Of a stretch of DNA of 64,000 bases, positions 4,767-62,104 are shown piece by piece. Each line of letters opens with the position of its first letter. The stretch's first letter is position 1. A program made the translations under genes and the position numbers. Source of the stretch: Verrucomicrobiota bacterium (GTDB lineage Bacteria; Verrucomicrobiota; Verrucomicrobiia; Limisphaerales; J093); contig JAXGQW010000015.1 of the NCBI GenBank assembly GCA_040766265.1, positions 14,711 through 78,710 on the forward strand, read 5' to 3'. The notes under the pieces are model-generated. The model saw only the letters and a program-made list of their open reading frames with translations. It was not told the DNA's origin and did no database searches.

Positions 4767-5483
4767 ATGCCTGTCAGAACACTCACGATTGATGGCAAAC
4801 CGGTCAGCGCGGTCGAGGGCCAGACCGTGCTGGACGCGGCGCAAGACGCGGGGATTTCCATCCCGACGCTCTGTCACCTGGATGGGGTGTCGGATGTCGG
4901 CGCCTGCCGGCTTTGTTTGGTCGAGGTCACCGGCGTGTCGCGGCTTCTGCCCGCCTGCGTCACCAAGGTGACCGATGGGATGGAGGTGCGGACGGAGAGC
5001 GAGCGGCTGAAGCGGTATCGCCGGATGATTCTCGAACTGCTCTTTGCCGAACGCAATCACGTCTGCGCCGTCTGCGTGTCCAACGGGCGCTGCGAACTGC
5101 AGAACCTGGCGGTCGCGCAGGGGATGGACCATGTGCGATTCGCCTACCGGTTTCCGCCGTACGAGGTCGACATCACGCATCGGATGTTCGGCATGGATCA
5201 CAACCGGTGCGTGCTTTGCAGCCGGTGTGTCCGGGTGTGCTGGTTCATCGAGGGCGCCGCGACCAAGAACGTGGCTGGCCGCGGCGCGGGCGCGCGCATT
5301 ATCACCGATCTGAGTCAACCGTGGGGGGAATCGGAGACGTGCACCTCCTGCGGCAAGTGCGTTCAGGCGTGTCCCACGGGGGCCAAATTTCACAAAGGTT
5401 CGACGGTGGCGGAGATGGAACGGGATCGCTCGCGCCTTGAGTTCATCGTCACCGCACGGGAGAAGAAGCAATGGATCGTCTGA
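4767..5483 (+). CDS. hoxU: hydrogenase diaphorase subunit HoxU (NuoG N-terminal-like Fe-S protein)
   Basis: [37 protein letters not shown]...CRLCLVEV (2Fe-2S ferredoxin-type) followed by multiple CxxCxxC 4Fe-4S motifs. Confidence 0.9.
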
Positions 5484-7474: not shown

Positions 7475-7612
7475 TTAGCGAGGCTTCGTCTCAGACCTCC
7501 GAGGCTTGTGAACGACTCGTGGCCGCTGGGTGGCAACCACGATCACCGGCACCCGACGCCTCGCTAAACGGCGCCGCTGCGCGGCGCAAAAACTTGACTC
7601 ATTCGGTACAGA
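7475..7612 (+). repeat. palindromic unit D (93 bp, TTAGCGAGGC...GCCTCGCTAA) plus 45-bp unit G (GC hairpin + AAAAACTTGACTCAT)
   Basis: About 85-90% identical by eye to 26426..26566. The D part (7475..7567) also occurs inverted at 45850..45942. The termini of D are 13/14-bp inverted repeats. Confidence 0.8.
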
Positions 7613-7755
7613 TTCTGGAAAGGAAGTCACTCTTGGCACCGGACCGCGGGAAGCCCTGTGCAACATTCGCGGCGGGGATGGCCCGTCGCGTTGCATGAGA
7701 AGGCGGTTTTCTGCCGTTCTTTTTCTACTCGAAATCCCGGCTGCGGCATTCCACC

Positions 7756-12944: not shown

Positions 12945-13019
12945 GCTAACCCGCATATTTCACACCCCGTCGGTACACATGGCGGTCAGACTTCGCGAGA
13001 GGACTGCTATGCGGGTTAG
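12945..13019 (+). repeat. palindromic unit A (75 bp, GCTAACCCGCATA...TATGCGGGTTAG)
   Basis: Near-identical to 61585..61659 and similar to 45615..45687. Has a 12-bp perfect terminal stem. Confidence 0.8.
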
Positions 13020-13022
13020 AAA

Positions 13023-14910
13023 CGGAACTTCCATTAAGATCTGATGCCGGAATCGTGGTTTCGGCCTTATTTTTCAAGGGGTTTACGCACGTGGTTGATT
13101 TTCTTGCGCGTGCCTACGGTGACTTGTGCTTCGGGCACCGTCGCGGGGAGAACCAACTTCAGTGCCTGGAGCAGTTGCTGCTGGCGGGCACTGGGTTCGG
13201 GCACCTGGCGCGCCACGACCTTGCCGCTGCCCGAGTGAACCAGTTCCATGACGCAGAGCTGTTCGAGTTGGCGCAAGCCTTCTTCCACCGTGACTTCCAG
13301 CGACCACCAGGCTTGCTCCAAATGACGGCGCACTTTTAAGGCCAGCATCGCTGTCAAGGCGTGGGCTTGGGTGTTGTCTTCAGTGCAGACAAACCACGGT
13401 CGCATTTCCAGGTGCCCGGTCTTGAGGGTGCGGAAATCCCGCTCCACCAGGGCCAGGTCTTTGTACCGGTCATGGATCGTTTGCGCGTCGGCCGCCGCCG
13501 TTTTGAGATCCGTCTCGACCACATAGCAACCATCCAACTGCGCGGCGGCTTGCAGCGCCGCAGCGTCGAGGGTCAAGACCAACCGTTGTTGGCTGACGCT
13601 CAGTTTGAGCCAGTCCTGCACCTTGAAACTCGCCAGCCGGGCGGCCAAGTGTCGGTGCTGGGTGGCGACCTTGGCGCGCGGGTGCTCATCCAGATAGGTG
13701 TTGGCTTTCTTGAGGGCGGCTTCCAGCGCCTGTTGTTTCTCTTCGCGAGCCCGTTGGACTTCGGCTTGCCGGACGGGGTTGCGACGCAACACAAAACGCC
13801 GCCCGTCTTCGCCGAGCACCTCGTGGACTTTCTCCTCGAACAACTCCAGTTGGAGCACCTTGTCTGCCAGAAGCTTCTGGATCTGCGGCTTGGTCAGGGC
13901 GGTGAGGAAATGAAACTGCGCCTTCTGCGCGGCCGCTTTCTGGTCGGTGCGAATCATGCCCCGGTCGCCCACCAGGGTGACGCCCGTGCAGCCCAGCTCC
14001 TTTTTGATCTTATGGACTTGTTGGCCGAAGGTTTTGAGATCGCTGGTGTTGCCGCGATAAACCTGGATCGAGACGGGCTCCCCTTGGCTGTCGGTCAAGA
14101 GGCCGACGACGACCTGTTTCTTGCCCTCCTTGTGGTCCCGATTATAGCCCCAAGCCGCCAAGGCGTTGGAGTCGCCCTCCAAATAGCTGCTGGTCACATC
14201 GTAGAGAAAGAGTTGGTCCTTGGGAGGCGCGGGCCGAGCGTGCCACAGGCGCCGTTCGATCACGGCGTGACGGCCTTCGAGCCAGGCGCCGTTGGCATAG
14301 AGATCGTCTTCGGTGAAAGCGCGCTTCCAGCCCAAGAGCGCGGCGGCCGCACAGTGGGTGGCCAAACGGACCATGGCCAGCAAGGAGGGGCCGGGGCGCA
14401 GCACGCGGGCCACAACCTGCCAATAGCTCAACTGGGCCTGGCGCGTGACCCCGAGGGCTTTCTTAATCCCCAGGCGCTGGGCCACTTGGTCGATGGTCCA
14501 GAGCGCACCCATGCTGGGGCCTTGACGCAGTCGCAACGAGCCCTCGGAGGTGTCGGCCAGTTTGGCCAGTGAGTCAGCGGGTTGGGCGAGGGCGCGGCGG
14601 ACGGCGTCCAGGACATGGGCTGGCAGGTGGGTCAAGACGGCGAGGGTCTTGGACTTGACGGAGGAGCCGACGCGAAAAGACTCGCGCAAGAGGATCGATG
14701 TGTAGGCCTTGCCCTGCTTGCCTTTGGAGACGACTTCGGCAATGAACATGCCTACACCATATACCTTTATTGATCATTGTCAATATAATTATTCTAGAAG
14801 TATGTGAATAATAACCTGCCTACATGTGGCACAAAGTTGAAGGTGCATGAAACCCGCGTCAGATCGAGGCCCAATGAAGGTTTAGGGCCAAAAACTCACT
14901 GGAATCTCCG
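13023..14910 (-). mobile_element. IS1634-family insertion sequence (1888 bp) flanked by 6-bp direct repeat TAGAAA
   Basis: Imperfect terminal inverted repeats CGGAACTTCCATTAAG (13023-13038) and CGGAGATTCCAGTGAG (reverse complement of 14895-14910), 12/16 matching. TAGAAA at 13017-13022 and 14911-14916. The flanks reconstitute the A|B junction seen uninterrupted at 61655-61670. An AT-rich 5' region (14750-14900) contrasts with the GC-rich host. Confidence 0.8.
13067..14749 (-). CDS. IS1634-family (IS4-like DDE) transposase
   Basis: 560-aa intact ORF. N-terminus [43 protein letters not shown] resembles IS1634-family transposases. Has ...[10 protein letters not shown]... around a DDE Asp. Confidence 0.88.
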
Positions 14911-14917
14911 TAGAAAA

Positions 14918-15040
14918 GCAAAACCGCGCCCCGTTCGAGAGATAGAGAACTGCAGCACACTGTTCCCATCGCAAGGCGCCTTCAGGACCGGCAGGATGGC
15001 CCCGGGTCCCTTTCTGGGCGCGGTTTTGCCACAGCCCGGA
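14918..15040 (+). repeat. palindromic unit B (112 bp, GCAAAACCGCGCC...GGCGCGGTTTTGC) plus stub of unit C
   Basis: 13-bp perfect terminal stem. Homologous to 45692..45803 and 61664..61775, and inverted at 34873..34984 and 36506..36618. Confidence 0.8.
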
Positions 15041-16475
15041 CCGCCGGCTCTTCCCCTATGCGTAGGAATTCGAGCCGGTGGTTGGCGTCCGGGTTGCGGG
15101 TGGACGGACCGGCGACCAGCAGGGCGACGCGGCCTGGCACTTGGTGCTCGCGCAGCCAGTTCCGGGCGAACTCGCGCCAGCTCTCCGGACTCTCCGTCAA
15201 GTGCACGGCGTGGACCCCATAGGAGAAGGCCAACCCCTGGCAAACGGCGGGATCGCCGCTCAGGGCGACGAGCCAGACGGCCGGATTGAAGCGCGAGATC
15301 ATGCGGGCGGTCGTGCCAGTATGGGTCGGCACGAAAACTGCCGCGCAGGGGACCGTGTCCAACGCATTCTCGACGACCAAGGCGATGCCCTCGGCGGCGC
15401 TGGCAGGCTGACGCCGGCCGCCCATGGCCCGGAGATCGCTCCGCCGCGTGGCCGGGCAATGGGCCTCAGTGTAGGCGGCGATCTTCGCCAGCATGGCGAC
15501 GGCTTCCTCGGGGTATTTGCCCATGGCGGACTCGGACGAGAGCATGATGCAGTCGGTGCCGTCGAGGATGGCGTTGGCGACGTCGGTAGCCTCGGCGCGT
15601 GTCGGGAGGCGGCTGGTTACCATGGACTCGAGCATTTGGGTGGCGGTGATGACCGGTTTGCCAGCCAGGCTCGCCTGGGCGATGAGTCGCTTCTGCAAGA
15701 TGGCCATCTCCTCGATGGGCACTTCGACCCCGAGATCGCCTCGCGCCAGCATGATCCCGTCAGTGACCCGGAGGATCTCCTCGAAGTGGCGGAGCGCGTC
15801 TGCCCGCTCGATCTTTGCGATGACGAAGGGGTGTTTGCCGATGGCGTCAGCGGCAGCGCGCACAGCCTGCACATCAGCGGCGGTTTCGACAAACGACTGG
15901 CTGACCGCGTCGACCCCGTTGGTGAGGGCGAACTCGAGGCAGGCCCGGTCATGATCGGTGAAGGCGCTGATGCCCAGGTCGATCCCCGGGAGATTCAGGC
16001 CCTTCTTGGAACGTAACTCACCGCCGACCACGACTTGGCAGTGCACGTCGCGTCCCGTGACGCGCTCGACCACGAGTTGCACGAGGCCGTCGTTGAGGAA
16101 GAGTTGGTCGCCCGGCTTCACGACCTGCGGCAATCGGGCGAAGCTCATCGACGCGCGCTGCGGGTTCCCGACGACGTCTTCACTCGTCAACGTGAAGCGG
16201 TCGCCGGCCTGCAGTTGGATCGCTTCCGGTTCCAGCTTGCCGATACGCATCTTGGGGCCGGGCAGGTCGGCCATGATGGCCACACGCCGCCCCGTCGCCG
16301 TTTCCGCGGCGCGGATGCGGGCAATGCGTTCAGCGTGGCCGGCGAAGTCGCCGTGCGAGAAGTTGAGCCGTGCGACATTCAGGCCCGCGCGAATGAGCCG
16401 CTCGAGCATGTCCGGCGATTCCGAGGCCGGCCCGATGGTGGCGACGATCTTGGTTTTGTTTGGGGGCAGGGTCAT
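14982..16475 (-). CDS. pyk: pyruvate kinase
   Basis: MTLPPNKTKIVATIGPASESPDMLERLIRAGLNVARLNFSHG..., MADLPGPKMRIG and MLSSESAMGKYP. ATG 16475 is preferred; the track start 16631 adds 52 non-homologous residues. The last ~18 codons and the stop lie inside repeat unit B. Confidence 0.93.
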   Translation of the reverse strand: MTLPPNKTKIVATIGPASESPDMLERLIRAGLNVARLNFSHGDFAGHAERIARIRAAETATGRRVAIMADLPGPKMRIGKLEPEAIQLQAGDRFTLTSEDVVGNPQRASMSFARLPQVVKPGDQLFLNDGLVQLVVERVTGRDVHCQVVVGGELRSKKGLNLPGIDLGISAFTDHDRACLEFALTNGVDAVSQSFVETAADVQAVRAAADAIGKHPFVIAKIERADALRHFEEILRVTDGIMLARGDLGVEVPIEEMAILQKRLIAQASLAGKPVITATQMLESMVTSRLPTRAEATDVANAILDGTDCIMLSSESAMGKYPEEAVAMLAKIAAYTEAHCPATRRSDLRAMGGRRQPASAAEGIALVVENALDTVPCAAVFVPTHTGTTARMISRFNPAVWLVALSGDPAVCQGLAFSYGVHAVHLTESPESWREFARNWLREHQVPGRVALLVAGPSTRNPDANHRLEFLRIGEEPAVRAVAKPRPERDPGPSCRS

Positions 16476-16536
16476 AGCGGATGAAGTGACTGGACAGTCC
16501 GCAGGACGAATGGAAGTGCCGCCTCGACCCGTGCCT

Positions 16537-16555
16537 CTCCCCATCCGATGGGGAG
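16537..16555. repeat. short GC hairpin CTCCCCAT-CCG-ATGGGGAG
   Basis: Perfect 8-bp stem read directly. A related hairpin, CCTCTCCC-GCT-GGGAGAGG, is at 61959..61977. Confidence 0.5.
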
Positions 16556-16722
16556 AAGGTGCCCCCGCGGATGCAGGGGAAGGGAAAGGCGCAGCATATC
16601 CCACAGACTGCGGCATGGAAGAGGTTTCCATGTTCGTGGTTTCAAGAGAGAACCGAACCTTCCACGTAGGGTTTTGTCGCTCGCCAGCGCTTGGAGGTTG
16701 GCGACGGTGGTCGTGAGGGTCG

Positions 16723-25053: not shown

Positions 25054-25067
25054 GATCGGTTTGCTTT

Positions 25068-25143
25068 GCCAGCACGCACGAGCGCACCTCTCGATGACAT
25101 CAGCTCCGCGTTCTTCAGGAGTTGGCGAGAAATGCGCGCGCGA
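25068..25143 (+). repeat. degenerate palindromic unit E
   Basis: ...CGAGCGCACCTCTCGATGACATCAGCTCCGCGTTCTTCAGGAGTTGGCGAGAAATGCGCGCG aligns with 55211..55286 and 34988..35062. The terminal stem is eroded. Confidence 0.6.
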
Positions 25144-25294: not shown

Positions 25295-25606
25295 TCAGCG
25301 ACCGCGCCCGCCCCCGCGCCCCCCAAAGCTCCGCCCGCCTCCGCCGCCAAAGCCTCCGCTCCGGCTGGCGGAGCTCCGACTACTGAAGTCGCGGGCGCTG
25401 GCGCCACCGCTCATGCCACTGAAAGCGCTGCTGCGGGATGCCGTCGAGGGCGCCGATCGGCTGACCGACGGGCTGGCGGAGGGTCGCGAGACGTTGGCCG
25501 CCCGGGACGCACTGGAACGGTTGACCGCCGGCGAAGCGGTCGGCCGACTGGCGGACGGGGTGCCGGTGCTCGGCCTCGGGGCGATCGCACCCGTCGATGT
25601 GCACAT
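25295..25606 (-). CDS. possible Ser/Arg/Gly-rich low-complexity protein (frame uncertain)
   Basis: ORF ending ...SGGFGGGGGRSFGGRGGGRGR. An overlapping 80-aa ORF (25380..25622) has equal or higher GC3. Coding status is unresolved. Confidence 0.3.
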   Translation of the reverse strand: MCTSTGAIAPRPSTGTPSASRPTASPAVNRSSASRAANVSRPSASPSVSRSAPSTASRSSAFSGMSGGASARDFSSRSSASRSGGFGGGGGRSFGGRGGGRGR

Positions 25607-25637
25607 GGCAGTCAGGCTTCACGAGAGGTCAGTTCGG

Positions 25638-26425: not shown

Positions 26426-26566
26426 TTAGCGAGGCTTCGCATGAGACCAAAGAGGCGTGTGAACAACTCGTGGCCGCTGGGAGGCAACCACGATCAGCGG
26501 CGACCGACGCCTCGCTAAGTGGCGCCGCTGCGCGGCGCAAAAACTTGACTCATTTGCCACAGATTT
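26426..26566 (+). repeat. palindromic unit D plus unit G (second copy)
   Basis: See 7475..7612. Same orientation, same D-G order. Confidence 0.8.
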
Positions 26567-26619
26567 CATCGGGGAGTAACTCTAGGGTGACTTCCTTTTC
26601 ACAATTTGTACTGAATGAG

Positions 26620-27138
26620 TCAGTTGGTTTTGATCACCGTGCCCAACGCGGGCATATCGGCGGCGATGTTCAAATCGATGAACAGCGCCATCTGGTGCTC
26701 AACCTGAAGGAATTGCGCTGCCCGAGCCGGGGACACCGCCTTGGCTATTCTCTTGTGGTACTTCCTCCAGAGATCAAGGCGGGCTTGGACGTTCTTCAGC
26801 CATCGCTGGGCAATCGAGTTCGCGGCGTCATCCTCAAGGGTGCCGTTGGCGCAGCGATCGTGAAACTCGCGCAGCAGGGCGATCTTCTGGTTGGCGACTT
26901 GGGCCAAGTCCTGTTCGTACCGGCGATAGATCGGCCAGAACTTCTCGGCTTCCGGGCCGGTCATCTGCAGGGCTTCGTTCAATACGCGAATCTTGAAGGC
27001 GTTCACATCCGAACGCAGGTTCTCGATCGCGGCGCGCAAGTCGTCGGGGACATCGCGAGCCGCGGTTTGGGCAAGACTCGTCGCGCCGGCGAACGCGAGT
27101 CCGACGGCGAGGAGCAGGGACTGAAAACTGGTCTTCAT
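26620..27138 (-). CDS. hypothetical periplasmic helical protein
   Basis: MKTSFQSLLLAVGLAFAGATSLAQ signal peptide. Helical, Spy/CpxP-like composition. No confident family. Confidence 0.55.
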   Translation of the reverse strand: MKTSFQSLLLAVGLAFAGATSLAQTAARDVPDDLRAAIENLRSDVNAFKIRVLNEALQMTGPEAEKFWPIYRRYEQDLAQVANQKIALLREFHDRCANGTLEDDAANSIAQRWLKNVQARLDLWRKYHKRIAKAVSPARAAQFLQVEHQMALFIDLNIAADMPALGTVIKTN

Positions 27139-34783: not shown

Positions 34784-34822
34784 AGCGAGTCTCTCGGCGA
34801 CCCGGGTCCGCGGCCCACTCCC

Positions 34823-35062
34823 TAGCCCGGATTTCTCAATACCGCGAAGATGACAAAGAAATCCGGGCTGTGGCAAAACCGGGCCGGGACAGTGGAAAAT
34901 CAGGGTCTGGTCGCGCAGGAGAACGCAGTCGCAAACCGACACCCCGTTGCCTTTGTCCCTCCCTCCAGCCCGGCGCGGTTTTGCTTCGCTAGCGCGCATG
35001 AGCGCACTTTTCGACAACATCAGCTCCGCGTTCTTCAGAAGTTGGTGAGAAATGCGCGCTAG
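34823..35062. repeat. palindromic mosaic C - B(inverted) - E
   Basis: C 34823..34870 (TAGCCCGGATTTCT...AGAAATCCGGGCTG), B 34873..34984, E 34988..35062 (GCTAGCGCGCAT...ATGCGCGCTAG). Confidence 0.8.
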
Positions 35063-35114
35063 GTAGTTCCTCAGGTTCTTCATATCATTGACGTGACCTT
35101 CGGTTTGATGGCCC

Positions 35115-36343: not shown

Positions 36344-36456
36344 GAGGCAGATTCGACTTCAAGGAAGCGCGGCTTTGTCGGTCCGTTCAGATCGCATCCA
36401 TCTTGCGCAGCTTCGCTGACACGTCCACCGCCGACGTTCGAAAAGAAGGGCTGGCC

Positions 36457-36695
36457 AACCCGGATTTCTCGCCACTTGAAGGAGTAATCTGAAATCCGGG
36501 CTGTGGCAAAACCGCGCCCAGAGCGGGGAAAGCAACGATTCCGTGCGTCGGGATCGTGCTCGCCCAGCAGAACATTCTGTGGCTTTTCGTTCTCTCATCG
36601 GTCGGGGCGCGGTTTTGCTCTCTTAGCCTGCATTTGTACTTCTCCTGTGTGCTCCGGCTTCGCGTTGTCCAAAAGTGGTGAGAAATGCAGGCTAA
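36457..36695. repeat. palindromic mosaic C - B(inverted) - E
   Basis: C 36457..36503, B 36506..36618, E 36623..36695 (TTAGCCTGCATTT...AAATGCAGGCTAA, 13-14 bp perfect stem). Ends 5 nt from the porin stop codon. Confidence 0.8.
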
Positions 36696-36700
36696 GAGGT

Positions 36701-38185
36701 TCATCGCACCAGCTTGTACTGGAAGCTGACTTGGACGCGGTGATCGTCACCGCTGTTGCCGTTTTGGGCCTCTTTGAGTCCGTACAGATACTCCAGGCCC
36801 ACATAGAAGTTCTTCGTGGGGGCCCAAATGAGGTTGGCCTGGGTGTAATGGGTCTGCTCGTAGGCCAAGTCTCCCTGTTCCGGCCGGCCGTCCAGCCTGA
36901 CGTAGCCATAACTGACGGTCGACCGCCATTTCTCGCTCCATTGGTGGCGGTAACCAATCATCGCTCCCCAGGCGGTGAGCAGGTGCAGGTTGCCGAAAGC
37001 GTCGACGACGCCGGCGCTGCCACTGGGAAGGTCCTGGATGTAGCGGCCGATGCCTTCGCCGTAGGTGAAACTGCCCACCAGATTGTCCGCGCCGAACGTC
37101 TTCAGCATGCCGGAAAGGTTCAATCCCCACCCCACTCCGGAGTCGTCGGCCCCACCGCTGGCGTCGAACGAGAGGCTGCGCACGACACCCCCGAGTTGGA
37201 CATGGCCGACCTTGCCCTCCCACCGCCAGTTGCCGGCGAAATCCGGCATCGTGTTGCGCCCGTCGGCGCCCTCAGGAAGGTTGCTCAAATCGCTCTTGGG
37301 CTGTTCGATGGCGAGCGCCGTGTACATCGCTTGCGCCTTGAGCGGAATGGTGTAGCGCAGTTCCGGCTGACGCAGCACTGGCAGCACGCCGGGGCCCTCG
37401 AAATCCAGTGTGTCCGGAAACACGTCCGGATCGTAGAAGGTGCTCCACGTCTGGCCGACTGTGACGTTTGCCACCTGGCCGTAGAAATGTCGCAGCCGAT
37501 AATCCATGGAAGGTTCCGTGTTGTTACCGAAGAAGTCGTTCTCGTAGTAGATCTTCAGGGAGCCGATCGGGGTCGGCGAACGCAGTTCCAGATTCAGGCG
37601 GGTTTGCTTGGCGTGCATGGCAAAGTGCTCATCCTTGCCATAGTCTGTTTCGCCTTCGACCGGAATCTTGGACGTGATGAACATGTTTGGGTTCCCCACC
37701 TTGGAGGAATCGACGATGGCGTCGAGCTTGGCGTAGCCGCCCAACTTGACCCAGGTCTTGGTGCCAAACAGTTGCATGAAACCCTGATAGCTCGGATCGA
37801 GCGGGGCGTTGCCGGGACGAGGAGCGCTGAGATCGTCTTCCTTGATCGTGTCCTGGTAGGGAATCTGCGTGGTGTCATCCGCCAATTCATCGCCGGGAGG
37901 CGGAACCTTCGGCTTCAGGTCAGCGCCCGGTTGTGTCGAAGGTAAGATCCCGACGGGCACCGGCTCTTGGGGCACGGGCTGCACGGGGGGAGGAGCAGGC
38001 TTTGGTTGCTTCTCCAGGTCAGCGATTCGGCGATTCAGTTCCTGGATGGTCTGTTCCATCGCATTCACCATCGACTTGAGTTTCTCCAATTCGCTGGCGT
38101 CCTGCCCATGAACCATCCCGGTCGGACCAGCCGCCAGGACGCTCCCAGCCAAGACAAGGGTTCTCACGAATGAGTTCGTTATCAT
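36701..38185 (-). CDS. outer membrane porin with N-terminal coiled coil (DcaP-like)
   Basis: Signal peptide, coiled coil ASELEKLKSMVNAMEQTIQELNRRIADLEKQ, Pro-rich linker, then a ~380-aa beta-barrel-like region. Confidence 0.65.
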   Translation of the reverse strand: MITNSFVRTLVLAGSVLAAGPTGMVHGQDASELEKLKSMVNAMEQTIQELNRRIADLEKQPKPAPPPVQPVPQEPVPVGILPSTQPGADLKPKVPPPGDELADDTTQIPYQDTIKEDDLSAPRPGNAPLDPSYQGFMQLFGTKTWVKLGGYAKLDAIVDSSKVGNPNMFITSKIPVEGETDYGKDEHFAMHAKQTRLNLELRSPTPIGSLKIYYENDFFGNNTEPSMDYRLRHFYGQVANVTVGQTWSTFYDPDVFPDTLDFEGPGVLPVLRQPELRYTIPLKAQAMYTALAIEQPKSDLSNLPEGADGRNTMPDFAGNWRWEGKVGHVQLGGVVRSLSFDASGGADDSGVGWGLNLSGMLKTFGADNLVGSFTYGEGIGRYIQDLPSGSAGVVDAFGNLHLLTAWGAMIGYRHQWSEKWRSTVSYGYVRLDGRPEQGDLAYEQTHYTQANLIWAPTKNFYVGLEYLYGLKEAQNGNSGDDHRVQVSFQYKLVR

Positions 38186-45353: not shown

Positions 45354-45614
45354 TCCCGTCCGATCTGTCTGCCGAGTACGCTGGGTGCCGCAGGGCAACA
45401 CAACGCTCGACAGACAGCAGACTGCTCTCGATGCGATTCGCTGTGACCTCGGAAAAGTACGGGGTTGCCCCCTGAAGAACTACGAGGGGCCCCGAAGAAC
45501 ACCCCAAGTCGAAGGCGAATACGGCATCTGCCGAACTACAGCCTCTGGTCCCTTGTCGGACAACAGCCAGCTACGTGTTGTCATTCCCGCTCGAGCCCCG
45601 CGCAGCGGGACCGC

Positions 45615-45942
45615 TTAGCCCGCATAGTTCACACCCCGATGGTGCACGGGCACTCAGACTTCGCAAGAGGACTGCTATGCGGGCTAGAGAAGCAAAACCG
45701 CGCCAGGATCGAGAGATCGAGAACTGAAACACACTGTTCCCATGAGAGACCATTCTCAGGACCGACAGAATGCTGCCGGTTCCATTTCTGGGCGCGGTTT
45801 TGCCAGAGCCCGGATGTCAGACTCCGCGAAGCTTTGTGAAACATCCGGGTTAGCGAGGCGTCGGGTGCCGGTCATCGTGGTGGCCCCCCAACGTGGACGA
45901 GTCGTTTACAGGCCTCGCCAGTCTGCGGCGAAGCCTCGCTAA
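45615..45942. repeat. palindromic mosaic A - B - C - D(inverted)
   Basis: A 45615..45687, B 45692..45803, C 45806..45850, D 45850..45942. Adjacent units abut or share terminal nucleotides. Confidence 0.85.
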
Positions 45943-46577
45943 ATCTCAACGAAGCCGTGCTTGATGGCGAAGTGAAGCAACTCAGCGCTGTTGTGCAGGC
46001 CGAGCGCCTCCATCATCTGGTACTTGTGGAACTCCACTGTGCGGGTGGAGATTTGCAGTTTGTCGGCCACTTGTTTGGCGGAGCCTCCCTCAGCCAAAAG
46101 TTGCAGAATCTCCCGCTGACGCGGTGTTAACTTGGCCACCGGGTCCGTGATTCCCCGCGGCTCGTCCCGAATGGCGCGGAGCACTTCCCCAGCCAGGGAC
46201 GGGGTGATGTAGGTCTGTCCGTTCAGAGCCGCGCGAATGGCAGTGATCAGCTCAGCCGGGGCCGAATGCTTCAGCACAAATCCCAGGGCGCCAGCTTCCA
46301 GCGCGCGTCGGGCGTAGGCTACCTCTCGGTGCATCGTCAGGAAGACCACCTTCACATGCGGATTGTCTGCCTTCAACTGCGCCAGAGCGTCGATGCCGTT
46401 GAGGAGCGGCATGGTGACGTCCGCGACGATGACATCCGGGTTGATCTTCTTGGCGGTGTCGACGAGGGCGCGGCCATCCTCCACCACTTCCACGAGCTCG
46501 AAATCGTGGCTCAGCAGGCTCCTCAAACCCTCGGCCACCATGCGGTGATCGTCGGCGAGCAAGACACGTGGCTTCAT
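45939..46577 (-). CDS. NarL/FixJ (LuxR-type HTH) response regulator
   Basis: MKPRVLLADDHRMVAEGL..., VIVADVTMP, and C-terminal LTPRQREILQLLAEGGSAKQVADKLQISTRTVEFHK. The TAG stop lies within the terminal TTAGC of repeat unit D. Confidence 0.92.
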   Translation of the reverse strand: MKPRVLLADDHRMVAEGLRSLLSHDFELVEVVEDGRALVDTAKKINPDVIVADVTMPLLNGIDALAQLKADNPHVKVVFLTMHREVAYARRALEAGALGFVLKHSAPAELITAIRAALNGQTYITPSLAGEVLRAIRDEPRGITDPVAKLTPRQREILQLLAEGGSAKQVADKLQISTRTVEFHKYQMMEALGLHNSAELLHFAIKHGFVEI

Positions 46578-46639
46578 AAGCAAAGGCTAAAGGCGAGGGG
46601 TGAAAGACGATCGGCGAGGACTCATGGCTTGGCTAGCCT

Positions 46640-54127: not shown

Positions 54128-55240
54128 ATGCGGTTTCTGATGTTGAATTGGCGGGATCCGAAAAACCCGCTGGCGGGGGGTGCCGAGCGCGTCACTGCCG
54201 GATACCTTTCCGCATTGAAGCAGCGCGGGCACGAGGTGTTCTGGTTTGCCAACCATTTCCCCGGCGCGGCCATCGAGGAAACCGTCGAGGGCATCCCGGT
54301 CGTGCGGGGAGGCGGCAAGGGGAGTTCGGTTCTGGCCGCCCGGCGATGGTATCGGCGGCAGCGTCCGTTTGACCTGGTGATCGACCAGCATCACGGGATT
54401 CCGTGGTACGCGCCGTGGTGGTCGCGCACGCGGTGTGTGGCGTACATTCACGAGGTGCTGGGGCCGATCTGGGACGTGTTCTACAACTGGCCCTGGTCGG
54501 CCATCGGCAAGTGGCAGGAACGTCGGACGCTCTGGCTCTACCGGAATGTGCAATTCTGGACGGCCTCGGCCTCGACAAAGACCATTCTGTCCGAGATCGG
54601 CGTTCGGCACGTTCAGCTCATTCCCTACGGCGTCCATACGACAGCCATCCCGGAACTCGAATCGAAACCGATCGAGCAACCTGTGCGCCTGGTCATGGTG
54701 TCACGGCTCGCACCGAATAAACGGGTCGACCATGGCATTCGGGCTTTGCGATGCCTGGCCGACCGGGGCATCCGAGCGACGCTGAATATCGTGGGGGCGG
54801 GCGACATGGAACCGGCGTTGCGGGCTCTGACCTCGGAGTTGAGCGTGGGCGGGCTAGTGCGTTTTTCAGGGCCGCTGTCCGAAGCGGCGAAGGATGCTGC
54901 GTTGCGAGAGGCTCATTTGCTCTTGCACGCTTCACTGCGCGAGGGGTGGGGGCTGAATATCATCGAAGCCAACGCCATGGGCACACCCGCCGTCGTCTAT
55001 CCTGTCGCCGGGCTGATCGAGGCCACGGTGCAGGATCAGACGGGGCGCGTGGCGGACTCGGAATGCCCGGAGGCACTCGCGGATGCCGTGCAGCGGTGCG
55101 TCGAAGCGCCGGCGGATTATCAACGGTATCGCCGTTGCGCGTGGGAGCGGGCCAAGACCTTTCACTGGAGCCAAGTGCTGCCAAGGGCATGCGATTGGCT
55201 CGAGGCACGGGCTAACGCGCATGAGTGCACCTCTCGATGA
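54128..55240 (+). CDS. glycosyltransferase family 4 (GT-B)
   Basis: MRFLMLNWRDPKNPLAGGAERV... and the EX7E region REGWGLNIIEANAMGTPAVVY. The last 9 codons (ANAHECTSR) and the stop are encoded by repeat unit E. Confidence 0.88.
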   Translation: MRFLMLNWRDPKNPLAGGAERVTAGYLSALKQRGHEVFWFANHFPGAAIEETVEGIPVVRGGGKGSSVLAARRWYRRQRPFDLVIDQHHGIPWYAPWWSRTRCVAYIHEVLGPIWDVFYNWPWSAIGKWQERRTLWLYRNVQFWTASASTKTILSEIGVRHVQLIPYGVHTTAIPELESKPIEQPVRLVMVSRLAPNKRVDHGIRALRCLADRGIRATLNIVGAGDMEPALRALTSELSVGGLVRFSGPLSEAAKDAALREAHLLLHASLREGWGLNIIEANAMGTPAVVYPVAGLIEATVQDQTGRVADSECPEALADAVQRCVEAPADYQRYRRCAWERAKTFHWSQVLPRACDWLEARANAHECTSR

Positions 55241-55355
55241 CATCGGCTCCGCGTTCTTCAGAAGTTGAAGAGAAATGCGCGTTAGCCCGCATTTCTCACC
55301 AACTTTTGACGTCATCTGACCGGTCACCGTCACATTTCACCTGAAATGCGGGCTC
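55211..55355 (+). repeat. palindromic units E (55211..55286) and A-prime (55282..55355), sharing TTAGC
   Basis: E: GCTAACGCGCAT...ATGCGCGTTAGC (12-bp perfect stem). A-prime: TTAGCCCGCATTTC...GAAATGCGGGCT. Confidence 0.8.
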
Positions 55356-55356
55356 A

Positions 55357-56440
<1,084 letters not shown>

Positions 56441-56551
56441 CTACTAGAGCTTTGCACGCGCACGGGCAAGCTTGGTCCCGAAGAGAGAGCGTGCGCCATG
56501 GCCCTACTAGAGCGAATCGCATCGATGCTGGGTGGCTTGGGCTCGCGCTGA
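56441..56551 (+). pseudogene. C-terminal remnant of a four-helix-bundle (23S rRNA IVS / Avd-like) protein gene, apparent 3' exon of the intron
   Basis: LLELCTRTGKLGPEERACAMALLERIASMLGGLGSR* fits the family C-terminus pattern (..LL.l...lgyl..ee...l...leei.kML.GLi.sl) recalled from memory. No upstream exon is present. Confidence 0.45.
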
Positions 56552-56602: not shown

Positions 56603-56733
56603 ATCCTGCAACCACATCGACAAGCATCGAGAATGTCCAAACTCTTGGCGCGGACTCACGTCCGCGGCTACGCAACCACGATTCATGGGCAGCGCTGACA
56701 TTTAAGGGTTCGATGCGCACGGCCATGAACCAG

Positions 56734-56866
56734 AAACGTGCAACGCTCAACGCTCAACGTGCAACGCTCAACGCTCAACGTTCAACGCTCAACGCTCAAC
56801 GCTCAACGCTCAACGCTCAACGTTCAACGTGCAACGCTCAACGCTCAACGTTCAACGTTGAACACT
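56734..56866. repeat. heptanucleotide tandem array, ~19 units of CAACGCT (variants CAACGTT, CAACGTG)
   Basis: Read directly: 17 clean units from 56741 to 56859 plus degenerate flanking units. It ends in the 14-bp perfect palindrome GTTCAACGTTGAAC (56850-56863). Lies 99 nt upstream of the ATG at 56965. Confidence 0.95.
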
Positions 56867-56964
56867 CCTCACTCTCCACTCCATTCTTTGCTCGCGGTTG
56901 ACGGGCGCACGGCAAGTGTGGAATTCTCGGTCGATCGAAGCTCAACTGGAAAGGGGCAAAGACT

Positions 56965-61412: not shown

Positions 61413-61589
61413 ATGCCTGACAAAAGCAACCAAGGGACAAAAAGGACTCCAAGGGACGAAAGCCCGCTTCCGTCCCCCGAGTCCCCTCCGTCTCTTCCCG
61501 AGGGCGCGGGCTTCATCCCGCCCCACGGCGGCTACCAAAACCTGCTGAGAGAGGGCGGCCTGCGCGAGCGCATGACCCGCGCCCGCTAA
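61413..61589 (+). pseudogene. internally deleted four-helix-bundle-suffix-domain gene remnant (58 codons; below the track threshold)
   Basis: My translation: MPDKSNQGTKRTPRDESPLPSPESPPSLPEGAGFIPPHGGYQNLL|REGGLRERMTRAR*. The N-terminal GFIPPHGGY..L and C-terminal EGG.RER..R.R motifs of that family are joined directly, so about 150 central codons are missing. The stop TAA is the TAA of GCTAAC of repeat unit A. Confidence 0.55.
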
Positions 61590-61826
61590 CCCGCATATCT
61601 CACACCCCGTCTGTGCACATGGCAGTCAGACTTCGCAAGAGGACTGCTATGCGGGTTAGAAGAGCAAAACCGCGCCAGGCCTGAACGATGGAGAAATGCA
61701 TCAGACTGTTTCCATCGCAGAACACCTTCAGAACCGACACGAGGCTCTTGGTTTCCTTTCTGGGCGCGGTTTTGCCACAGCCCGGATATGAAACTCCGCG
61801 AAGCCTCATGACATATCCGGGCTAAG
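61585..61826 (+). repeat. palindromic mosaic A - B - C
   Basis: A 61585..61659, B 61664..61775, C 61778..61826 (GCCCGGATAT...ATATCCGGGC). Confidence 0.85.
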
Positions 61827-62104
61827 AGAGAGGAGGCGCCACATGACCACCACTGAGGGGCCTCCAAAGACTCCCAGGACAGAATGCCGCACGTCCTTTG
61901 CGTCGCTTCTGTCCCTGCCGTCCCTTTCCAAAACAGGCCGCGCCGAATTCGCGGCACTCCTCTCCCGCTGGGAGAGGCCGGGTGAGGGTGCTTGCATGTC
62001 CGCGAAGCTGGCGTGTCGCTGATTGACTGCGGGCCATGCGGATGCTGATTTTCTTGTGTCCGGCGGGGTGTGCCTTCATGCTCCCGGCCCGTTTGGATGC
62101 AGGT

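Follow-up and report, generated by a model that had tools for sequence, protein, structure and literature searches.

The DNA examined here is a 64-kb window (G+C content 63.6%) of contig JAXGQW010000015.1 from a Verrucomicrobiota bacterium, in which palindromic units, labelled A to E and G, are stacked into mosaics. The mosaic at positions 45615-45942 consists of a 231-bp element, which we will refer to as ABC, and of an adjoining unit of a different kind (D), and it reads GACCGC-TTAG-(ABC, 45619-45849)-TTAG-CGAGGC...(D inverted)...GCCTCG-CTAA. A preliminary description of this sequence had interpreted the units as a dispersed family resembling repetitive extragenic palindromic (REP) sequences and the bacterial interspersed mosaic elements (BIMEs). 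The results described below indicate that ABC is a miniature inverted-repeat transposable element (MITE), the ends of which match those of insertion sequences (ISs) of the IS1380 family. The features of the focal mosaic are as follows.

45615 to 45618, plus strand: left TTAG of the 4-bp duplication flanking the focal ABC, read in the sequence; TTAG is found again at 45850-45853.
45619 to 45849, plus strand: body of the focal ABC MITE, 231 bp, with ends matching the inverted repeats (IRs) of the IS1380 family.
45619 to 45683, plus strand: unit A, followed by the internal tetranucleotide CTAG (45684-45687) and the linker AGAA.
45692 to 45803, plus strand: unit B, followed by the linker CAGA.
45808 to 45849, plus strand: unit C.
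45619 to 45849, plus strand: ends of the focal ABC, CCCGCATAGTTCAC on the left (like the right IR, IRR, of the IS) and GTGAAACATCCGGG on the right (like its left IR, IRL).
45850 to 45942, minus strand: D unit, a 93-nt palindromic sequence (TTAGCGAGGC...GCCTCGCTAA), inverted.
45850 to 45853: terminal TTAG of D, which is also the right copy of the duplication of the focal ABC.
45939 to 45942: end CTAA of D, containing the TAG stop of a minus-strand LuxR-type response-regulator gene (45939-46583).

Every locus named in the preliminary description was recovered by self-blastn, a repeat search and nhmmer profiles of the units, and the hairpin-type units are, as it had stated, dispersed across the window, where they sit between genes or at gene ends. 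In the self-blastn and nhmmer results, matches to ABC extended over 45606-45857 and 61578-61833 on the plus strand and over 34815-35072 and 36451-36705 on the minus strand, those to solo A/E units over 25060-25139 and 55211-55286, those to A over 12945-13021 and to B with a C stub over 14911-15040, an IS lying between them, and those to D over 45850-45942 (minus strand), 7475-7567 and 26426-26518, with D-G matches at 7475-7636 and 26426-26586. The 21-nt sequence at the junction of B and C (CGGTTTTGCCASAGCCCGGAT) is present five times in the window when up to three mismatches are allowed (four copies are exact and one has a single mismatch) and it was not found in any of 100 shuffles. When species-representative genomes were scanned, the pattern of this junction was present at no fewer than 81 loci in at least six Verrucomicrobiota metagenome-assembled genomes (MAGs; CAWJWM01, CAYPUR01, JAKLFY01, DAOOQY01, MWFF01, and JAKQDD01), one long-contig assembly among them; this set does not include the window's own genome, and every one of the matches listed was in a Verrucomicrobiota MAG. 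Due to this recurrence and the absence of the junction from the shuffles, chance is excluded as the source of the repeats, as are the two possibilities raised at the outset, viz. that the units occur only in this window or that they are an artefact of assembly. The repeats are thus real and lineage-wide. Many of the loci listed end at the repeat. The four ABC copies of the window show just 57-78% mutual identity and are therefore old, and those of the MAG CAWJWM, which are up to 96-97% identical, suggest more recent activity. Orthologous loci of related lineages, 956 kb in all, contain no unit; the 80 metagenome loci orthologous to the region of an RND pump are free of units and too diverged (69-89% at the amino acid level) for empty sites to be read at the level of single bases.

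Alignment of the four long copies, together with a census of arrangements in the window and the loci from the MAGs, showed that A-B-C is a single element with a body of 229-233 nt. Units A and E, which had been listed as distinct kinds, are diverged subfamilies of one unit, and the separate order reported as C-B(inverted)-E is A-B-C on the opposite strand. The dominant arrangement is A+B+C+, represented by 41 plain copies and about 10 others to which D or G is joined. The units D, G, and solo A join ABC on either side and in either orientation. As the forms that contain only A and C are internal deletions still holding part of the 3' arm of B, the possibility that B is a separate insertion into an A-C precursor was ruled out. 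Of the fixed orders in which the units had been said to concatenate, that of A-B-C therefore stands, as the order within one element, whereas no such order holds for D, G, or solo A; what had appeared as fixed orders is one element plus nested insertions and not a grammar of independent units. The other elements of the window are listed below.

61586 to 61825, plus strand: ABC MITE of subfamily A1, with a CTAA...CTAA duplication and internal TTAG.
34821 to 35063, minus strand: ABC MITE of subfamily A3 (described earlier as C-B-E), with a CTAG...CTAG duplication.
36455 to 36700, minus strand: ABC MITE of subfamily A2 (also described as C-B-E), with TTAG on the A side, a degenerate TTGG on the C side and internal CTAA; it begins 5 nt past the stop codon of the gene 36701-38185.
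12945 to 13021, plus strand: A unit of an ABC MITE split by an IS.
13022 to 14910, minus strand: IS1634-family IS of 1889 bp with a 560-aa transposase (13067-14749; NF033559, 276 bits).
14916 to 15040, plus strand: B unit and truncated C stub of the split MITE, into which the 3' end of a pyruvate kinase open reading frame (ORF; 14982-16631, minus strand) reads.
25060 to 25142, minus strand: solo A unit (A3/E type) with degenerate ends.
55211 to 55286, minus strand: solo A unit (A3/E type), CTAA...TTAG.
55287 to 55375, plus strand: truncated element of the second family, H (A' unit, B' deleted, first ~16 nt of C' left), adjoining a 5'-truncated group II intron.
7475 to 7636, plus strand: uninterrupted D-G composite (...GCCTCG CTAA A GGCGCCGC...), the empty-site reference for a nested ABC.
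26426 to 26632, plus strand: uninterrupted D-G composite, then a partial inverted G.

The bodies of the single units are 47-116 nt long. Their basal stems are conserved (~95% Watson-Crick pairs over 60-80 copies) and their loops variable. Several compensatory stem types are found (CCCGCAT/ATGCGGG, CCTGCAT/ATGCAGG, and GCGCGCAT/ATGCGCGC), such changes being seen between the ABC subfamilies as well as between ABC and the H family, which has a body of ~277 bp and the same plan of three hairpins with every stem altered in a compensatory way. The focal ABC is predicted to fold as three separate hairpins (z = -4.7 relative to shuffles), and a body of 229-233 bp made up of three hairpins has no coding capacity. 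Within it are inner inverted copies of the element's own ends, which form the A and C hairpins, and a central B hairpin with an invariant 13-bp stem, and both the inner-arm copies and the 13-bp stem are maintained in the two diverged families. The loop interiors share no common fold across the subfamilies, and G.U pairs are about as frequent in the stems as A.C (11/8, 13/6, and 17/11), so that no single-strand signature is seen. The pair of units reported as E-A' at 55211-55355 consists in part of what had been supposed: E is a solo A unit, but A' (55287-55375) is a truncated copy of the H family.

The terminal inverted repeats (TIRs) of ABC are ~20 nt long and imperfect (CC[C/T]GCATTTCTCACCAC at the A side and CCCGGATTTCTCACCAC at the C side), the two agreeing on average at ~16 of the 24 terminal positions and covarying from one subfamily to the next. 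Identical tetranucleotides flank 22 of the 36 ABC copies (permutation mean 10.1, P<1e-4). In 17 of these 22 the flanks are non-palindromic direct repeats (CTAA, CTAT, or TTAG), CTAA..CTAA alone being seen 14 times, and none is of the inverted type. All three copies of the H family are flanked by TTAG...TTAG. Beyond the tetranucleotide, the sequence differs from copy to copy. The ..AGC and GCT.. with which every unit had been said to start and end are accounted for by the flanking YTAR (CTAG, CTAA, or TTAG) plus the first base of the inverted repeat.

The cleanest proof of the 4-bp duplication comes from nested insertions. Five uninterrupted D-G composites read ...GCCTCG CTAA nGGCGCCGC..., and at the loci L073 and L022 the corresponding sequence is ...GCCTCG CTAA (231-nt ABC) CTAA gGGCGCCGC, so that ABC is nested in the CTAA of D-G. 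A filled and an empty site are also available from an orthologous pair, in which L052 is empty (TTTCTAG-AGTCC) and L024 is filled (TTCCCAG-(stack)...CCGGGCTAG-AGTCC), the whole stack lying at a single CTAG. A syntenic relative, L100, which among the empty sites of relatives is usable for spacer length alone, has a spacer of ~15-25 nt where the window carries the ABC at 36455. In view of its TIRs, the 4-bp duplication, its small size and non-coding nature, its many dispersed copies and the filled/empty pairs, ABC is a MITE.

When IMG/VR was scanned with the end sequence of this MITE, contigs were found in which GGTGAGAAATCCGGG-CTAG is followed ~120 nt inward by an ORF of 453 aa. The encoded protein (L165:1-1362) matches the Pfam domain DDE_Tnp_1_4 (E 5e-155) and the NCBIfam model NF033539 (transpos_IS1380) with 414 bits against a cutoff of 180, and it has thousands of relatives at 77-93% identity in metagenomes. 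Complete copies of the IS are 1673-1682 bp long and have the IRL CCCGGATTTCTCACCAGG and the IRR (reverse complement) CCCG(G/C)ATTTCTCACCAGG; the pattern of the ends is CCCG(G/C)ATTTCTCAC. Two of the complete copies read CTAG-CCCGAATTTCTCAC...CATGCGGG-CTAG (L170) and TTAG-CCCGGATATT...ATATGCGGG-TTAG (L168). In the long contigs the flanks are CTAG..CTAG in L170/L171 and L172 and TTAG..TTAG in L168, with one mismatch in L169 and L167. Nearly every IS end adjoins YTAR: in 26 copies with 25 readable flanks on each side, the left flank is CTAG in 14, TTAG in 6, CTAA in 2, and TTAA in 1, and the right flank is CTAG in 14, TTAG in 6, and CTAA in 4. The C end of the MITE is identical to both IRL and IRR (100%) over 16 nt. 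Judging by these sequences, the ends of the MITE and the class of its flanking tetranucleotides are those of an IS1380-family IS, and we infer that an IS1380-type transposase acting in trans, now or formerly in the same cell, moved the MITEs. The ISs of this family are ~1.67 kb long with IRs of ~16 bp and short direct repeats (PMC3281130).

It is thus likely, in our assessment, that ABC is a MITE with IS1380-type ends which stacks upon itself at YTAR. A number of observations weigh against this reading. The MITE is homologous to the IS over no more than the terminal 14-18 nt, so that ABC does not represent one of the recovered IS copies with a simple deletion. A tblastn search revealed no IS1380-type transposase in the window and 554 kb of MITE-bearing MAG loci (~2% of those genomes). 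The IS copies with matching ends are from metagenome and IMG/VR contigs of unknown host, and the names of the clusters returned a single host name, Candidatus Acidoferrum, an acidobacterium. Further, the left and right flanks of the IS are shuffled in short contigs, and the paired IS duplications rest on five long-contig copies, two of them with one mismatch. The conserved inner hairpin arms and the invariant stem of B exceed the needs of a plain MITE, and D, which has inverted flanks and no IS1380-like end, is left unexplained by this model, as is G. In regard to the short contigs (L173-L192), one left flank was observed with different right flanks and vice versa (e.g. L173, L179, and L180); these assemblies are probably chimeric across the repeat, which makes paired duplications taken from such contigs unreliable.

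Among the alternatives, the one that survives best is that the MITEs were moved by another DDE family with a TA-centred target, viz. IS630/Tc1-like elements (CTAG target, TA duplication) or the IS5 group (YTAR target, 4-bp duplication). YTAR is the classical target of IS5, the flanks observed are C-TA-G or C-TA-A, those of D (T-TA-G...C-TA-A) would suit a TA duplication in a TTAA site, and the host sample (the window and the 554 kb of MAG loci) lacks an IS1380 transposase. However, a TA-only duplication of the IS630 type, which the C-TA-R...Y-TA-G flanks of unit A had suggested, is ruled out by the direct non-palindromic 4-bp repeats, as it cannot explain why the fourth position is identical at both ends (in the 14 cases of CTAA..CTAA and in CTAT..CTAT). 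The ends of ABC are, moreover, identical over 16-18 nt to the IRs of an IS1380-family IS, and they begin with CC, which is typical of the IS1380 family, and not with the GG or GA of IS5. No IS5 or IS630 element with ABC-type ends (CCCGGATTTCTCAC) was encountered, and we consider a source of this kind improbable.

It is still harder to maintain that these are REP/BIME-like hairpins dispersed by a tyrosine transposase of the HUH type (RAYT, TIRYT, or IS200/IS605-type), which would recognise the hairpins and a flanking tetranucleotide on single-stranded DNA. All the units form hairpins in which the basal stem is conserved and the loops are variable, with a conserved tetranucleotide at the foot, the stems have changed in a compensatory way between subfamilies and families, D lacks a direct duplication, and REPs are abundant in other Verrucomicrobia (Opitutus terrae; PMC3733652). 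However, a REP is defined as an imperfect palindrome of 20-40 nt with a GTAG (or CGTC) tag (PMC3733652), whereas the units found here are 47-116 nt long and are tagged by YTAR. ABC, in addition, has TIRs and a true 4-bp duplication, including the non-palindromic CTAA, CTAT, and TTAG and confirmed by the nested insertion, while HUH elements make none, and its ends and flanking tetranucleotide class are those of an IS of the DDE type. The likeness to BIMEs and REPs proposed in the preliminary description is not supported by these characteristics, and the A/E-B-C units turn out to be, in effect, a MITE with a transposase-defined structure. Its statement that the window holds no gene mobilising the units was borne out; none of the 21 window ORFs scanned encodes a Y1 transposase.

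An equally remote prospect is that the hairpins serve as a structured RNA present in many copies, or as a module regulating in cis (a terminator, a small RNA, or a stabiliser of the 3'-UTR), that is selected in the transcript, with mobility being secondary: the three-hairpin plan with compensatory stem changes in two diverged families, a fold more stable than shuffles (z as above), the mild orientation bias relative to tandem flanking genes (20 same, 9 opposite) and the many copies directly after stop codons would fit such a role, but there is no Rfam match (the best mosaic hit has an E value of 0.62, and with Rfam 15 the threshold was reached in the window by tRNA and group II intron domain V only), the loops share no fold and the stems contain about as many G.U as A.C pairs (counts as above), the hairpins lack a U-tract, the gene contexts of the units (convergent 14, divergent 14, and tandem 29, ~1:1:2) are those expected of random intergenic placement, and the absence of the units from the 956 kb of orthologous loci indicates that they are not a conserved regulatory feature.

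Returning to ABC as a MITE with IS1380-type ends, the structure of the stacks can be related to the distribution of its target. YTAR is found at 719 sites in 618 kb (~1 per 860 bp, at ~64% G+C), and the borders of the ABC copies, of D and of G carry it, with an occasional CTAT at MITE sites. The earlier observation that the units are palindromic and modular and that neighbouring ones abut with shared nucleotides holds good, as every junction inside the stacks has exactly one common YTAR. The MITE would insert at YTAR (CTAG, CTAA/TTAG, and occasionally CTAT) and duplicate 4 bp. Since YTAR is scarce in the genome but present at the borders of existing elements, insertions would stack: new copies would land at the borders of, or within, earlier elements, thereby giving rise to abutting stacks with one common tetranucleotide, and D and G, as older small palindromic elements with YTAR borders, would serve as landing sites. 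In the focal mosaic, the sequence indicates that the insertion site of ABC was the TTAG at the end of an older, inverted D. Because YTAR contains TAG or TAA, the ends of the elements are often the stop codons of neighbouring genes; this is the case for 33 of 144 YTAR-bounded mosaic ends, where the stop codon is that of a long ORF, in comparison to 7% of all YTAR sites. The pyruvate kinase ORF at 14982-16631 (minus strand) extends ~50 residues past the PK_C domain, and its final ~19 codons with the stop fall within the B unit and the truncated stub of C, so that the ORF as it now stands seems to owe its C-terminus to the MITE.

The duplicated tetranucleotide is also related to a tetranucleotide inside the element, referred to here as I4, which is located where the inner arm of the A hairpin has its foot and of which the duplication is the reverse complement. 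The association between I4 and the right-hand duplication, which are 230 nt apart, is significant (Fisher p=6e-5). Where I4 is TTAG, 14 of 16 copies are flanked by CTAA..CTAA; I4 of CTAG is mostly accompanied by CTAG..CTAG and I4 of CTAA by TTAG, and in the H family, where I4 is approximately CTAA, the flanks are TTAG..TTAG. The same analysis revealed an orientation bias of 15:1 (p=5e-4), and different states of I4 and the duplication coexist in one genome and within one subfamily. It is conceivable, though on balance doubtful, that the MITE specifies or inherits its own 4-bp target and the orientation of its insertion. If the relationship is mechanistic, it would indicate a piggyBac-like route in bacterial IS1380-type elements, whereby the excised element retains the 4-nt flank as an overhang, leading to a 'heritable' duplication; the donor may instead, or as well, need a paired end hairpin in which the flank is included. 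In either case the choice of target would be set partly by DNA and not by protein alone, and the covariation of I4 would allow a mechanism of the piggyBac type to be read out naturally in bacteria.

The D and G units are separate families of YTAR-bounded elements. D is 93 nt long. Of its 18 copies, 13 are flanked by TTAG...CTAA, an inverted and not a direct arrangement, and there are variants such as CTAG-CGAGGCGCC.... G consists of a GC hairpin and AAAAACTTGACTCAT; neither of them matches the ends of the IS1380-type IS. The matches of phage genes to the termini of D in scans of viral contigs were considered as a parent of D and dismissed as chance. At L193 3648-3751 (IMGVR_UViG_3300001605_000097), a 24-nt match to the terminal repeat of D (TTAG-CGAGGCTTCGCCTCAGACC) gives way to unrelated sequence and to a gene reading inward, of which the 3' end is present. 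This may be an end of the autonomous parent of D and is the only lead to such a parent; the locus ends there. In the G units of the window (7568-7636 and 26519-26586), the conserved AAAAACTTGACTCAT that follows the GC hairpin contains a -35-like TTGACT. A different YTAR-bounded palindromic unit, at L039 ~5100-5230 (TTAG-AATCCTTG...AAACTTGACT...CAAGGATT-CTAG), has the AAACTTGACT motif in common with G, and both units may be mobile promoter modules.

Some copies have undergone changes other than insertion. The ABC at L053 1230-1471 combines an A3-type left arm and a left-hand CTAG with an A2-type inner arm (TTAG) and a right-hand CTAA. It has the appearance of a recombinant between two copies of the MITE, in which case their two insertion sites would have been rearranged with each other. 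In closely related MAGs, a solo A at L016 5370-5560 corresponds to an A remnant, B-C and a gene for a 571-aa membrane protein at L057 2223-4045, a difference that probably reflects a deletion by recombination between MITE copies. This pair and the site at 55211 were examined as clean insertions, which was ruled out, both being rearrangements or truncations. The IS1634 element at 13022-14910, reported earlier as inserted in one copy, was confirmed as to family. It is complete and lies exactly at the A/B junction of the MITE, with IRs of its own (ACGGAACTTCCATTAAG and the reverse complement CGGAGATTCCAGTGAG) and a TAGAA duplication (13017-13021 and 14911-14915); these features and its family rule it out as the parent of ABC, to which it bears no relation.

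The group II intron that adjoins the truncated H-type MITE is itself 5'-truncated (55381-56444). Its reverse transcriptase ORF fragments (55381-55830 and 55605-56300, GIIM domain) begin at position 34 of RVT_1 and are frameshifted, and domain V lies at 56331-56444 (Rfam, 51.8 bits). A tandem array of 7-nt repeats (AACGCTC/AACGTGC/AACGTTC, with super-periods of 21 and 14 nt) occupies 56714-56895, ~270 nt downstream of domain V. An isolated 39-nt fragment at 25590-25628 shows 87% identity to the loop of an A1-type unit (61606-61642) and is inside an apparent ORF with high G+C at third codon positions (25380-25622, minus strand).

Bacterial MITEs moved in trans by DDE-type ISs are known, including Correia/NEMIS in Neisseria, RUP in Streptococcus pneumoniae (IS630-Spn1), Nezha in cyanobacteria, and the TIMEs, which depend on Tn3-family transposases (PMC4133298). 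Like them, ABC is small (~230 bp), non-coding and multicopy, with TIRs identical to those of an autonomous IS and a duplication that matches the long-contig IS copies in length and tetranucleotide class, and it shows insertion polymorphism, nesting, an intergenic location and the donation of stop codons to neighbouring genes. It is unlike the known MITEs in that its partner is of the IS1380 family and the homology to this IS is limited to the IRs, in having inner inverted copies of its ends and a B hairpin with a 13-bp stem, a plan which is kept in a second family, and in the covariation of its duplication with an internal tetranucleotide. No description of IS1380-associated MITEs was found in the searchable library of literature consulted; ABC is an ordinary kind of element, a MITE, but of a type for which no earlier description was found.

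The IS identified here is a typical member of the IS1380 family (IS1380, IS1247, and ISEcp1), as it is ~1.67 kb long, codes for one 453-aa DDE_Tnp_1_4 transposase and has IRs of ~16-18 bp starting with CC(C) and short direct repeats, whereas the window contains the non-autonomous derivative only, with no transposase. In piggyBac, the element and its target are laid out as TTAA-CCC...GGG-TTAA, which the YTAR-CCC...GGG-YTAR layout of the IS and the MITE resembles. The IS1380 family is used as the outgroup of piggyBac and is regarded as its relative in prokaryotes (PMC10813416). While reported members such as IS1247 make repeats of 5 bp (PMC3281130), the IS clade found here makes 4-bp YTAR repeats.

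With REPs, BIMEs, and REPINs the mosaics have in common that they are dispersed extragenic palindromes which abut one another, with a tetranucleotide at the foot of the hairpin and compensatory stem changes, but the ABC units are two to four times longer, lack GTAG/CGTC, and have a 4-bp duplication and the ends of a DDE IS, and no RAYT was seen. The BOX elements of Streptococcus pneumoniae (boxA-boxB-boxC) are similar to ABC in having three modules in a fixed order, of which the outer ones are able to pair and the middle one is sometimes lost. They are not related to ABC in sequence, and BOX has no identified transposase or defined duplication, whereas the ends and the duplication of ABC point to a specific IS family.

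Short-read assembly is disrupted by these repeats: many of the loci stop at a repeat, and in short contigs the parent IS has flanks that are probably chimeric. The identification of ABC gives a concrete account of ~3% of the window and of many intergenic regions in an uncultured lineage of Verrucomicrobiota that are filled with stacked hairpins. On this account, which we consider likely, the IS1380 family, the members of which are bacterial relatives of piggyBac, would join the IS families that have MITE derivatives.

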